Translations under genes and position numbers: made by a program | Notes under the pieces: generated by a model | The model's database searches: none | The model's input: only the letters and a program-made list of their open reading frames with translations | Told to the model about the DNA's origin: nothing | Shown here: in pieces, positions 1,104 to 4,348 of the stretch | How positions within the stretch are numbered: position 1 is the stretch's first letter | Layout of the letters: every line of letters starts with the position of its first letter | From: a virus | Taxonomy: Duplodnaviria; Heunggongvirae; Uroviricota; Caudoviricetes | DNA length: 31,589 bases | IMG/VR virus record: IMGVR_UViG_3300045988_127337 | Span: 1-31,589 of that record | Direction: 5' to 3' (one strand)

Positions 1104-1466
1104 TTAACGACCTGCTGCGCGGAGTTTTCCGTCAGGTTCACCGGCAAGAGTCAGTAACTGTCCCTGGTCTTCCTGCAGAATAGTCAGGCGACCACCGCGA
1201 TTGACATACATCGGCGTTTCGGTGGTGTCTTCTTCGGAAATTTTCCCGCGGTTAGTCGGGCGAACATATGAGAGTTTGTGTTTGATTTTCACTCGGTTCT
1301 CATCAAACGGTTCGATTTCCAGGTTGAGCGAGACCTTACCTTTGGTTTTCGTGTTCATCACACCGGAAGCGACTTCACTGAGAACTGCGCCGATTTTGGT
1401 TTCAAATACGCCGCCGTCCAGCTCCCCGATAAATGCCTGCACATCAGTACTGCGTTCGCTAGCCAT
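1104..1466 (-). CDS. Hypothetical prophage protein, 120 aa (YfdP-like)
   Basis: ATG at 1466 is preceded by GAGGAG (revcomp of 1472..1477). The long upstream in-frame extension to 1784 is GC-rich and not protein-like. Sits directly upstream of the YfdQ-like gene on the same strand. Confidence 0.65.
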   Translation of the reverse strand: MASERSTDVQAFIGELDGGVFETKIGAVLSEVASGVMNTKTKGKVSLNLEIEPFDENRVKIKHKLSYVRPTNRGKISEEDTTETPMYVNRGGRLTILQEDQGQLLTLAGEPDGKLRAAGR

Positions 1467-1934
1467 TTTGCTGCTCCTCATCATATCGACCCTGCAAGGT
1501 CGGTTAGTTTCTCCACAAAACAGAGAAGAACACCTGCGGTGACTGCCGCCCGGATGGATTGGGTTATGAGCCCGTCGTCCGGTGATGCTCTTCTCTGTTT
1601 TGTAAAAAGGACGGTACCAGCCGGAAGCAAGGGTACAAGCTGGTACCGCCAAGACTACACACAGCATAAAGTTGTGGTGCCGGGTGCCTCCCGGTGCCTG
1701 GCGAAGGTTGCACACCAGGCGGGTGGGTATCCACAGAAGGTCGACTGTCAGCCTCAACCTTAACCCGCGTGCGCTGAGCCGCATTCACCACAACGCTAAG
1801 GATTCTCTCTGGTTGAAAATACTTAGCTGTTATGTGCCTGCTTTTAGCCACATCAGGCGAGGTGGACCTAGTTATTCCCCAACAACAAGGATTCGGTTAA
1901 TCTGGTTATCCCCAACAACGCAAAAGGAAAAGAA
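1467..1934. other. GC-rich structured non-coding block (candidate ncRNA or regulatory DNA)
   Basis: No protein-like ORF. Perfect 15-bp inverted repeat arms at 1515..1529 and 1589..1603; 9-bp inverted repeat GGTACCAGC/GCTGGTACC at 1613..1621 and 1639..1647; direct repeats GTTAT(T)CCCCAACAAC at 1871..1886 and 1905..1919. Confidence 0.4.
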
Positions 1935-2369
1935 ATGTCCGGTAATATCTATACGCTGTACAAATCCCACTGTGAAAATGTTGGAAAGTATCGGGGCATT
2001 GAAATCAGTGGGGTAGTGTCATCAGTCGAAATAAGCAAAGTTGAATCAAGGGCAACATTACTTACTCTTTTGGACCTTGTCTTACATGAGCACCGGAAGA
2101 AATTCGGCACTCCCTATAATCAGTTGAATGGGAAAAAGGCTCTGGTTCACCTTATTCTGATGAAGCATCACTGGATGCCAAAACAGATTAATGAGATGAA
2201 ATTTGATGAACTTCTTCTTTCAATTCAGGATGAACTCACACTTGATAAAATAAGCGTAACCGCCCAGAAATTTTTAGATTATCGAGACTGGAGATCACAA
2301 ATTCATCACTTTGATGATTTTGACGAAAATGAATGGGATCCTAATTTGTCTGCACAATATCTAAAGTAA
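1935..2369 (+). CDS. Hypothetical protein, 144 aa; AT-rich orphan (moron-like) gene
   Basis: ATG at 1935 with AAGGA Shine-Dalgarno 6 nt upstream. AT-rich by eye compared with neighbours. Oriented opposite to the early-left operon. No recognisable motif. Confidence 0.6.
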   Translation: MSGNIYTLYKSHCENVGKYRGIEISGVVSSVEISKVESRATLLTLLDLVLHEHRKKFGTPYNQLNGKKALVHLILMKHHWMPKQINEMKFDELLLSIQDELTLDKISVTAQKFLDYRDWRSQIHHFDDFDENEWDPNLSAQYLK

Positions 2370-2591: not shown

Positions 2592-2624
2592 ATTGTTAAA
2601 GAGCTAAGCGTCCTGTAGGGCGCT
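2592..2624 (-). promoter_or_regulatory. Nut-like antitermination element: hairpin followed by rrn-type boxA
   Basis: Minus-strand RNA reads hairpin (2624..2607) then GCUCUUUAACAAU (2604..2592), a 13-nt match to the E. coli rrn boxA consensus as recalled. Lies in the leader between the PL-like promoter and the 68-aa gene. Confidence 0.5.
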
Positions 2625-2781: not shown

Positions 2782-3456
2782 TTAGGCTTTGATTTTGTAT
2801 CTTCTTGGTTTTCCTGAGAAAATCACAGTTCCAATTATAGAGCAATTACCGTTGATCTTAATGTAAGGCTCAGGCCAGTTTGGGTTTAACGCTTTGAGAT
2901 AACGCTGTGTCCCATCTTCTATCAACCTTTTGAAGGTGGTTTCACCTGTATCGTGCATCAATGCAATAACGTCGTCACCGTGGCAGGCAGGTACTTCAGG
3001 ATCGACAAAAATCATGTCTCCCGGGCGGTACTCGTCAATCATTGAATCACCTATCACCCGCAAGATATAAGTCATTTCCCCACAGGGTACAGGGCAGGGA
3101 TACGTTTCTGCTGTGCTCAAATCAACCTCAGAATATCCAACTTCTTTCCATGCTCCGGCCTGTACCCATGATATGACAGGGACTAATGTGATTTGTTTAT
3201 TAGTGATTGAAACATCAGGTTTTTTTGTGATGTTCGTTGTCTGGTGTTCTTGATCGAGCCATCCGACAGGCAGGTCGAAACATTTTTCGATGTGTCGTGC
3301 CATGCTGTCACCGATATTTTTAGTAGCACCATCTCCCATAAACCTGCTGGTCTGGGTTGGCTCGCGATCAATCATAGTGGCAAAGGAAGAATTCCCGCCA
3401 ACACCATCTCTCAGTTTTCTGGCGTTAGACCGCCGGATGTCATGGATTGTTTTCAT
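2782..3456 (-). CDS. CI-type prophage repressor, N-terminal HTH plus C-terminal S24 (LexA-like) peptidase domain
   Basis: 224 aa. C-terminal region aligns by eye with P22 C2 (LNPNWPEPYIKINGNCSIIGTVI vs LNPQYPMIEINGNCKIIGVVV). Contains GDSM catalytic serine motif and an Ala-Gly cleavage site (VQAGAW). No Shine-Dalgarno, consistent with a leaderless PRM-type transcript. Confidence 0.85.
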   Translation of the reverse strand: MKTIHDIRRSNARKLRDGVGGNSSFATMIDREPTQTSRFMGDGATKNIGDSMARHIEKCFDLPVGWLDQEHQTTNITKKPDVSITNKQITLVPVISWVQAGAWKEVGYSEVDLSTAETYPCPVPCGEMTYILRVIGDSMIDEYRPGDMIFVDPEVPACHGDDVIALMHDTGETTFKRLIEDGTQRYLKALNPNWPEPYIKINGNCSIIGTVIFSGKPRRYKIKA

Positions 3457-3778: not shown

Positions 3779-4348
3779 ATGAGGCTAATCGTGGGTAAGC
3801 ATCACTGGAAAATAGAAAAACAGCCTGAGTGGTACGTGAAAGCTGTCAGAAAAACTATCGCGGCGTTGCCGGGTGGTTACGCTGAAGCGGCTGACTGGCT
3901 CGATGTAACAGAAAACGCTTTATTCAACCGCCTTCGTGCAGATGGCGATCAGATTTTCCCGCTGGGATGGGCAATGGTTTTACAGCGTGCTGGTGGCACT
4001 CACTTCATTGCTGATGCTGTGGCGCAGTCTGCAAATGGCGTCTTTGTGTCTCTTCCTGACGTCGAGGATGTGGACAACGCCGATATTAACCAGCGTCTGC
4101 TGGAAGTCATTGAACAGATCGGCAGTTATTCAAAACAGATTCGTTCAGCAATCGAAGACGGTGTAGTGGAACCGCATGAGAAGACAGCAATTAACGACGA
4201 GCTGTATCTCTCAATTTCGAAGCTGCAGGAGCATGCAGCACTTGTCTACAAAATTTTTTGCATTTCAGAAAGTAATGACGCCCGCGAGTGTGCAGCTCCG
4301 GGCGTCGTGGCGTCGATTGCTTCTGGTTGTGGAGAAACTAACGCATGA
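3779..4348 (+). CDS. CII-like or YdaT-like early regulatory protein, 189 aa
   Basis: Position immediately after cro in the early-right operon. Family assignment from memory only. The start could instead be the GTG at 3791, which has a GAGG upstream. Confidence 0.5.

Follow-up and report, generated by a model that had tools for sequence, protein, structure and literature searches.

Introduction

In a viral DNA of 31,589 nucleotides (IMG/VR record IMGVR_UViG_3300045988_127337; the whole of this stretch is called the window below), about 470 bp (1467-1934) separate the leftward gene yfdP from a rightward gene, and the question raised by this block is whether it works as RNA, as DNA or as the remnant of a gene. 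As a lambdoid prophage, the window falls into the e14/SfV/ST64B type. A first-pass annotation, made from the letters alone, had described the block as GC-rich and devoid of protein-like open reading frames (ORFs), had listed inverted and direct repeats in it, and had proposed a structured non-coding RNA or a regulatory DNA element.

It is clear from the comparisons reported here that the feature is real and that its interpretation as RNA was correct: the probability that the block is a structured RNA of the minus strand is estimated at about 0.95. The novelty lies in a relative of the STnc100 and PasD small RNAs (sRNAs) that scores below the family threshold and occupies a new genomic position, in its fusion to a stretch identical to the seed of the sRNA RprA, and in a further RNA motif that is not in Rfam. 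As the best explanation, the block would be the untranslated minus-strand leader of the early-left operon (repressor, pL, leader, yfdP-yfdQ) and would carry an unannotated sRNA unit.

Strand and structure of the block

The RNA reading is supported by a match to the Rfam family STnc100, by covariation in all variable helices of the core, its pseudoknot among them, by covariation in the long hairpin that follows, and by G.U pairs, which the opposite strand would turn into A.C mismatches. Folding of both strands gave energy z-scores against shuffled sequences of -5.6 for the minus strand and -2.8 for the plus strand. The covariance-model search returned a full-length, sub-threshold STnc100 match on the minus strand, and the alignment of homologues revealed compensatory changes in the core helices and in the long hairpin. 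These were among the checks that the first-pass annotation had proposed, and of its two suggestions only the RNA is retained.

Several of the features that it had pointed out turn out to be parts of this RNA. The perfect 15-bp inverted repeat (1515-1529 / 1589-1603) extends to 25 nt with 84% complementarity (1515-1539 / 1579-1603). The GGTACCAGC/GCTGGTACC repeat, which had been given as 9 bp, is a perfect repeat of 10 bp (1612-1621 / 1639-1648) and reaches 12 bp on the minus strand with one G.U pair, while the CCTGG/CCAGG pair corresponds to helix P4 of the RNA (1720-1713 / 1703-1696). The G+C content is indeed higher in the block (0.54-0.57) than in its flanks (0.36-0.47). The direct repeats GTTAT(T)CCCCAACAAC at 1871-1886 and 1905-1919 exist, but they lie outside the RNA, in a separate mosaic module (1866-1919).

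Long perfect inverted repeats and direct repeats would also fit an element that acts as DNA, be it a cruciform, a recombination or attachment site, an operator array or an origin. Mosaic breakpoints do cluster at the edges of the modules: among 71 distinct upstream regions with an identical YfdP, homology to the window ends at 1919, 1865, 1666, 1652 or 1616, which are the module borders. Nonetheless, mosaic phages are expected to have breakpoints at the borders of conserved modules, the direct repeats lie outside the conserved RNA, and three signatures speak for RNA: the asymmetry of the G.U pairs, the pseudoknot, and conservation that is specific to a single strand. A DNA-level element is very improbable and is not needed to account for the block.

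A decayed protein-coding gene of the ymfH type is suggested by existing annotation. In Escherichia coli K-12, e14 is annotated with a 103-aa YmfH on the homologous stretch, and at an identical locus in strain 1428 the Prokaryotic Genome Annotation Pipeline (PGAP) reports a frameshifted hypothetical protein. A clone of the ymfH ORF has furthermore been reported to trigger RcaT, the toxin of retron-Sen2 (bioRxiv 10.1101/2020.06.22.160242). A frameshifted gene, which had been named beforehand as one of the outcomes that would speak against an RNA, is thus formally present as a ymfH-like pseudogene, but this is misleading, given that the ymfH ORF exists only in e14. At least two frameshifting indels break the ymfH frame in each of the 39 other distinct homologous stretches, and in e14 the frame depends on a 1-nt deletion in the otherwise invariant P5 hairpin. 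The ymfH-like translation is a string rich in Arg, Pro, Gly and Val, and the three overlapping ORFs that had been listed in the block are present with no match to any Pfam or NCBIfam family. The substitutions in the block are compensatory for RNA pairing. The broken frame and the lack of protein families effectively refute a protein gene, to which we assign a negligible probability. In K-12, ymfH (4002-4313 of the e14 stretch L002) seems to be a spurious ORF that overlies a decayed RNA copy, and the retron phenotype of its clone could be an RNA effect.

The core and its relationship to STnc100 and PasD

The 5' domain of the RNA is a core of five helices and a pseudoknot (Table 1). In a permissive scan, the STnc100 model (RF02076) matched 1824..1601(-) over model positions 1-206 with 43.4 bits and an E value of 1.2e-7. 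At gathering thresholds, Rfam gave no matches in the whole window, and standard annotation misses the core because its score falls below the STnc100 threshold. Every helix of the family is satisfied by pairs of the window copy, with GCGGC/GC-A-CGC in P2, GGGU/ACCC in P3 and GCCUGGUG/CGCCAGGC in P4, and its minimum free energy (MFE) fold gives P1, P2, P4 and P5.

The window carries an exact 22-mer, CACCGGGAGGCACCCGGCACCA, at 1696-1675 (the P5 hairpin followed by CACCA), and GGUGAAU at 1789-1783. A scan of species-dereplicated genomes for this invariant 22-mer yielded 110 stretches with 112 distinct cores having the GGUGAAU and P5/CACCA motifs. They are spread across Enterobacterales, including Kosakonia, Enterobacter, Klebsiella, Raoultella, Citrobacter, Trabulsiella, Buttiauxella, Pantoea and Erwinia, and have a common layout: helix P1 as GUGGUG/CACCAC, the AAU junction, P2 with a bulged A and a UNNGC loop, P3, P4 and an invariant P5, CCGGG-AGGCA-CCCGG, with the pseudoknot joining the strand just after P3 to the P4 loop.

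For the named structure, covariation was evaluated with 32 diverse cores in a plain MAFFT alignment. The pairs are formed in 83.1% of the cells versus 71.1% in shuffles, and the covariation score is 0.316 versus 0.122, a value that none of 500 shuffles reached; slid controls gave 0.08-0.12. For the pseudoknot, changes on both sides are seen in all six pairs, and when P4 loops were matched with their own 5' segment, 6.22 bp were obtained against a mean of 4.74 bp with foreign segments (0 of 2000 permutations). The G.U pairs, which occur in all core helices, become A.C mismatches on the plus strand. The pseudoknot is missing from the Rfam consensus structure line of STnc100, and the preprint that relates PasD to STnc100 mentions none. 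The core of the STnc100 family is a pseudoknotted five-helix fold that is found well beyond prophage late regions, and it is highly likely that the core of the window belongs to the STnc100/PasD superfamily.

The window copy and STnc100 (EcOnc27/sRNA103 in enterohaemorrhagic E. coli, EHEC) resemble each other in the full-length alignment, in P1, P2, P4 and P5, and in GGUGAAU and the 22-mer; both are prophage-borne and have a 3' terminator. P2 is fully swapped with compensation, given that STnc100 has CCCCC/GG-A-GGG at this place. Within the late region, STnc100 members lie downstream of Q/stx and precede the lysis genes, whereas the window copy lies between the repressor with pL and yfdP, has a different seed and is followed by a second conserved RNA. 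PasD1 and PasD2, which are Hfq-dependent prophage RNAs of enteropathogenic E. coli (EPEC) with targets identified by sequencing of ligated, interacting RNAs (RIL-seq), have the same core closed by P1, a single-stranded seed and a terminator. PasD is likewise a sub-threshold relative of STnc100 (37.7 bits), and our own family model matches PasD1 at 30.2 bits. It differs in its location near Q/lpxR/lysis genes, in its seed (UGUGAG versus UGCUGUGUGUAGUCUU) and in the interior of the core. RNAs of this class have been detected experimentally (EcOnc27/STnc100 copies in EHEC and PasD1/2 in EPEC), EcOnc27 and PasD were reported to be Hfq-associated, and the mapped 5' end of PasD1 is the first base of P1.

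The core itself varies among related loci. Our family model matches the mEp460-type core at 24.6 bits and does not detect the L090 type, and the mEp460, L090 and L310 types have only the P1 flanks in common; the assignment of the V3 variant (L090 and L012) to the family is by these flanks alone. At least three variants (L010/L053 at 2172-2303, L090/L012 at ~2185-2305, and L310/L315) keep the closing helix GUUGUGGU../..CACCACAAC and its flanks around unrelated interiors. This pattern resembles the exchange of cassettes inside a frame that stays fixed.

In 18 of 106 non-redundant genomic cores, a gene for a KdgM-family porin (Pfam PF06178, 8.5e-74) lies 80-220 nt downstream of the core (L096, L107, L109-L111, L117, L119, L124, L133, L138, L145, L153, L158-L160, L163, L166 and L186). 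The family thus extends beyond the late regions of prophages, and in these genomes the core may be the 5' leader of the porin gene.

The RprA seed and terminator T1

The core is followed by a single-stranded linker in which UGCUGUGUGUAGUCUU (1666-1651) is identical in 16 of 16 positions to nt 62-77 of RprA, the seed of processed RprA (RprA sequence from PMC5606850 and PMC7311995). In sister phages the identity is 26/26 (L310), 19/19 (phiES15) and 17/18 (ST64B), and in L310 it continues, with no change of orientation, into the terminator of RprA itself. Downstream of the seed lies the intrinsic terminator T1. A hairpin with a U-tract is found at this place in 107 of 122 related loci with 23 distinct stems, and the stem covaries among phages, while the stretch just 5' of it stays GCUGUGUGWAGUCUU beside the 23 differing stems. 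T1 was missed by a simple terminator scan because its loop exceeds 8 nt.

RprA is a core-genome sRNA of the Rcs envelope-stress response that touches RpoS, curli and biofilm, NarP and Salmonella plasmid transfer. Its last 47 nt, which comprise the seed stretch and the RprA terminator, are a natural processed species that is produced by RNase E and active in vivo. The whole functional layout of this species is found in the window, with the seed AAUUGCUGUGUGUAGUCUU single-stranded, in the same orientation and directly 5' of an intrinsic terminator. By contrast, RprA's two 5' stem-loops are missing from the window unit, which also differs from RprA in promoter, locus and terminator. The RprA covariance model (RF00034) has no match at E<=10 in 1000-2800, and phiES15 reaches 41 bits versus a gathering score of 70. 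When RprA was compared by BLAST with the locus and the 112 cores, nt 60-85 alone were recovered, and no description of an RprA-like prophage RNA was found in the literature searched. Two candidate relationships seen by eye were rejected. The origin of RprA as a deletion derivative of the family core had been considered on account of a 5' resemblance (GCAUGGAAAUCCCCUGAG versus GCAUGGUGAAUCCCCCUGAG) that is not above the level of shuffled controls in BLAST with the 112 cores, and a short complementarity of the seed to the start of yfdP is not kept in ST64B and was dropped.

Element 2 and the 5' region of yfdP

The long inverted repeat is the lower stem of a second RNA, here called element 2, which begins at the end of T1 and folds into a three-way junction. 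Its RNAalifold structure has 33 pairs, 8 of them with compensatory changes. Pairing is formed in 98.0% of the cells versus 93.1% in shuffles, and the covariation is 0.191 versus 0.110 (0 of 500 shuffles), with 0.02-0.07 in slid controls. G.U pairs at columns 5/130, 8/127 and 24/111 of the alignment fix the strand as minus. Element 2 has no Rfam family at E<=10, and more than 120 stretches of IMG/VR, of which 75 are distinct, carry its inner motif GACGGGCUCAUAAYCCAAUCCA. A terminator almost always stands 5' of element 2, with its U-tract entering the first pair; on the 3' side come (A)UGGAGAAAC, a hairpin whose loop keeps KGCAG, and then the first gene's ribosome-binding site. As read from the alignment, the stem of this hairpin varies (CGACC, GGCGG, GCGCC, GGCGGCC) and its loop keeps UGCAG or GGCAG. 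Element 2 and the small hairpin probably set the processing, stability or translation of the downstream message.

Element 2 is found in other settings as well. In phage P1 (ban operon, L003 2429-2624) and in RCS47 (L004), upl and tciA flank a pair that consists of element 2 and, directly 3' of it, an STnc100-type core whose P1 helix is compensated (GUUGCGGUG/CACCGCAAC); a terminator is lacking, and the phage P1 record carries no annotation here. Element 2 is thus a second RNA motif, not in Rfam, that is common to lambdoid and P1-like phages. A short form (form B) with the outer stem GGCCUG/CAGGCC lies directly after tRNA-Asn/tRNA-Arg in the Klebsiella phages GZ7 and Chronis (L005 and L006, 1501-1575), downstream of Q and upstream of the lysis genes. 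The labels "tRNA-Arg/Asn" that BLAST returns for these phages arise from matches just after the tRNAs, which are this form. A tRNA or its remnant was rejected for the block, as ARAGORN found none in the window and no tRNA model matched at E<=10.

In three Buttiauxella prophages (L140, L141 and L143), a YfdP-like ORF begins 64-65 nt after a V1-type core, without T1 or element 2. This arrangement suggests that T1 and element 2 either entered an older leader of the core-yfdP type or were lost from it.

Genomic context and transcription

The coordinates of the RNA and of its surroundings are collected in Table 1.

Table 1. Positions of the RNA elements and neighbouring features in the window
Feature	Position	Strand	Details	Basis
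Core	1671..1794	minus	124 nt, five helices and pseudoknot	Rfam STnc100, covariation
P1	1794-1786 / 1679-1671	minus		
Junction	1785-1783	minus	AAU	
P2	1782-1778 / 1772-1767	minus	bulged A1770, loop UCAGC	
P3	1766-1763 / 1724-1721	minus		
P4	1720-1713 / 1703-1696	minus		
P5	1694-1690 / 1684-1680	minus	loop AGGCA	
Pseudoknot	1761-1755 / 1710-1704	minus	AAGGUUG with CAACCUU in P4 loop	
Linker	1651..1670	minus	UUUAUGCUGUGUGUAGUCUU, 20 nt, single-stranded	unpaired in MFE and centroid folds
T1	1604..1650	minus	intrinsic terminator; 12-bp stem 1650-1639 / 1621-1610, one G.U; 17-nt loop, then C and UUUUU (1608-1604)	read from sequence
Element 2	1604-1514	minus	91-nt three-way-junction RNA	RNAalifold, covariation
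S1 of element 2			long lower stem, the 15/25-bp inverted repeat	
S2 of element 2			CCGGA/UCCGG, encloses hairpin GGG-CUCAUAA-CCC	
S3 of element 2			variable hairpin GCGG..CCGC	
Tract and small hairpin	1487..1513	minus	conserved GAGAAAC (with G1514, GGAGAAAC), then CGACC-UUGCAG-GGUCG	alignment reading
yfdP Shine-Dalgarno and start	1478-1473; 1466-1464	minus	GAGGAG; ATG	ORF list; PGAP of identical locus, strain 1428
yfdP	1466..1104	minus	first gene downstream of leader	ORF list, PGAP
yfdQ	beyond yfdP	minus	DUF2303	
Upstream part of conserved module	1798..1865	minus	hairpin GCCUG (1858-1854)...CAGGC (1840-1836); mosaic breakpoint at 1865	
Direct repeats	1871..1919		two copies, GTTGTTGGGGA(A)TAAC on the minus strand, module 1866-1919	
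ECs1072-family gene	1935..2369	rightward		NCBIfam 1.7e-46
boxA-like site	2593..2604	minus	GCUCUUUAACAA, sole exact match in window; in pL leader, just 3' of hairpin 2625-2606	
pL-like promoter	2742-2715	minus	TTGACA, 16-nt spacer, CATAAT	promoter scan, 11/12 matches
LexA-family repressor	3456..2782	minus		

The pL-like promoter is flanked by GTAC-type operator repeats, has a 73-aa ORF next to it in the leftward direction, and is the probable source of leftward transcripts reaching the block. The rightward gene at 1935 had been called an orphan, but it is a member of the phage-associated ECs1072 family of NCBIfam. The order of repressor, long non-coding stretch and first early-left gene is common to ST64B, phiNP, mEp460 and phiES15; e14 of K-12, where the block adjoins xisE, is counted with the same position. 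The upstream part of the conserved module (1798-1865) is common to e14, phiES15 and the IMG/VR loci of class C, and one class of loci without the core keeps the seed and T1.

The direct repeats occur in just two copies in the window and are weak on their own, given that 10 of 100 shuffles gave at least two matches at up to three mismatches. Their module (1866-1919) is also present upstream of a different rightward gene in L026 (~2045-2100). As it precedes two different rightward genes, the repeats are not part of the RNA. The repeats, GTTGTTGGGGAWTAAC, travel with this 54-bp module ahead of the two "moron" genes and may be its promoter or operator; a sigma-70-like site was not detected in 1866-1919.

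The leader of pL carries a single site, GCUCUUUAACAA, that we take to resemble the boxA of rrn operons. In a phage group that lacks an N homologue, this site hints that antitermination depends on Nus factors. The first ~60 nt of this leader (ACAGGCAGGACGCCCACGAAGUAGCCGCC..., 2640-2700 minus) are kept in ST64B.

Two known early-operon RNAs were compared with the block. DicF, an sRNA of the Qin prophage, is likewise encoded in a repressor-controlled early-left operon, with a terminator at its end, and has the 5' arm GGCGGUAYCAG in common with the window; the match of its model (RF00039) is weak (1609-1663(-), 19.4 bits, E 0.34, versus a gathering score of 48), and it differs in its seed and in having no large 5' domain. 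The putL site of HK022 is also a structured RNA just downstream of pL, with terminators after it, in an N-less phage group. HK022, however, has both putL and putR, whereas the window has a single copy, with no sequence likeness and no evident structural likeness to them.

Proposed release of a small RNA or possible control in cis

In the sRNA model, the leftward transcript would fold first into the five-helix pseudoknotted STnc100/PasD domain, followed by the 20-nt unpaired stretch with the 16-nt seed of processed RprA and by T1. Transcripts that stop at T1 would be ~190 nt long, or ~60 nt if they were cut just 5' of the seed as RprA is. Such a product would have the anatomy of an Hfq-dependent base-pairing sRNA and would be a phage-borne look-alike of processed RprA acting on its targets, while read-through past T1 would place element 2 and the small hairpin in the 5' untranslated region of yfdP. 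We consider it an even chance that an sRNA with the RprA seed is released and acts in trans.

Expression data bear on this model. Of the prophage small RNAs of MG1655, inside cells and exported alike, Ghosal et al. (2015) list two as most abundant; one is a 35-nt e14 RNA (L002 4156-4190, window ~1633-1667), which spans exactly the seed and the 5' arm of T1. The other RNA in that study, AATGACGCCCGCGAGTGTGCAGCTCCGG, maps to 4274-4301 (+) of the window, inside a ymfL-like gene. The supplements of two Hfq-based datasets, from cross-linking and analysis of cDNA (CRAC) in EHEC and from RIL-seq in EPEC, have no entries under ECs1070-1072, yfdP, yfdQ or ymfH.

Several observations weigh against the sRNA model or against parts of it. 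The STnc100 score stays short of the gathering score of 47. The promoter scan found no sigma-70-like promoter at 1800-1934(-), whereas canonical STnc100 members have -10 boxes, as read by eye, 5-10 nt upstream of P1. The RNA would therefore depend on read-in from pL or on processing. T1 has an unusually large loop and five U. The region of RprA that pairs with rpoS and narP (nt 30-70) is mostly absent, with 16 nt in common, and the window has no seed-complementary site besides the locus itself, with no target identified. The 35-nt e14 RNA, which is the sole expression datum, was printed as plus strand, that is, complementary to the RprA seed, so its sense is ambiguous. Finally, the cores of phage P1 and of the Buttiauxella prophages run into an ORF without a terminator, and because of this the core is not tied to sRNA release.

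The last observation also favours another explanation, namely that the block is a cis-acting operon leader and not an sRNA gene. In this case the core, element 2 or both would act on the polymerase, as in the put-like antitermination of N-less phages, or as processing or stability signals, and T1 would be the terminator that they govern. Both elements are found with or without a terminator and head operons of unlike genes (yfdP, tciA in phage P1, holins, and KdgM porins in 18 species). In phage P1, the core follows element 2 without a gap and the two abut the tciA ribosome-binding site, and in ST64B two terminators and both elements precede the first gene. The extreme conservation of the junctions and loops is not what a mere scaffold of an sRNA usually shows, the window copy lacks an adjacent promoter, and specialists have proposed an unidentified put-like RNA for the LLS/ST64B/phiNP group. 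Against this stand the lack of any similarity of the block to putL or the pL leader of HK022 and the position of element 2 after T1 instead of before it. Custom models run with filters off found no second, putR-like copy of the core or of element 2 in the window, its rightward operon included. The boxA-like site points to a Nus-factor mechanism instead, and members of the family accumulate as discrete Hfq-bound sRNAs. A purely cis-acting leader is on balance unlikely, although it is the alternative that we take most seriously.

A broader form of this idea, that the core and element 2 are a portable cis-acting RNA device for elongation, termination or processing of the operons that they head, is a more speculative and less likely proposition. 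If it held, it could include the RNA-based early antitermination that has long been sought in the N-less lambdoid phages (ST64B/LLS/SfV/e14 group), and in many Enterobacterales the genes for KdgM-family porins could be regulated in cis by the core.

The printed strand of the e14 RNA raises the opposite possibility, that the functional RNA is made from the plus strand, carries AAGACUACACACAGCA, the perfect complement of the RprA seed, and is an anti-sRNA (sponge). The other "(+st)" reads of the paper are in RNA sense, and Tree et al. report that sRNAs form convergent pairs at loci of the STnc100 type. The prophage anti-sRNAs AgvB and AsxR adjoin STnc100-type genes in convergent orientation and engage a core-genome sRNA via its seed. 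They are, however, complementary target mimics, whereas the structured strand of the window has the same sequence as the sRNA and would make it a mimic of RprA and not a sponge. Scans found no plus-strand promoter or terminator nearby, the G.U pairs in all helices are lost on the plus strand, and the homology of the sister phages to RprA enters the RprA terminator and its U-tract in minus orientation. In addition, the paper leaves its strand calling undocumented, and its annotation is not strand-aware and mixes ryeA and ryeB reads. A sponge is quite improbable, and it is kept in consideration because of the printed strand of the e14 read alone.

Returning to the sRNA model, production of the RNA would make the prophage a second source of the processed RprA seed. 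Temperate phages would thereby gain a direct handle on a core stress regulon, and rprA-deletion experiments in K-12 strains that bear e14 would be confounded. The comparisons establish the strand, the structures and their conservation, the kinship with STnc100 and PasD, the identity of the seed and the terminator, whereas we infer the release of an sRNA, its dependence on Hfq, an overlap with the targets of RprA and the role of element 2. The block is also a concrete candidate region for the unexplained control of early operons in N-less lambdoid phages.

At least 80% of the unit is carried by 1830 of 5426 complete E. coli genomes, about one third, in which pipelines label it "hypothetical protein", "ymfH" or pseudogene. 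In ST64B, a further RNA was seen ~2.4 kb from the leader (L007 21-110 minus), with an isrK match of 64.3 bits, above gathering, and a weak c4-a1b1 match; it is a separate antisense-RNA immunity module.

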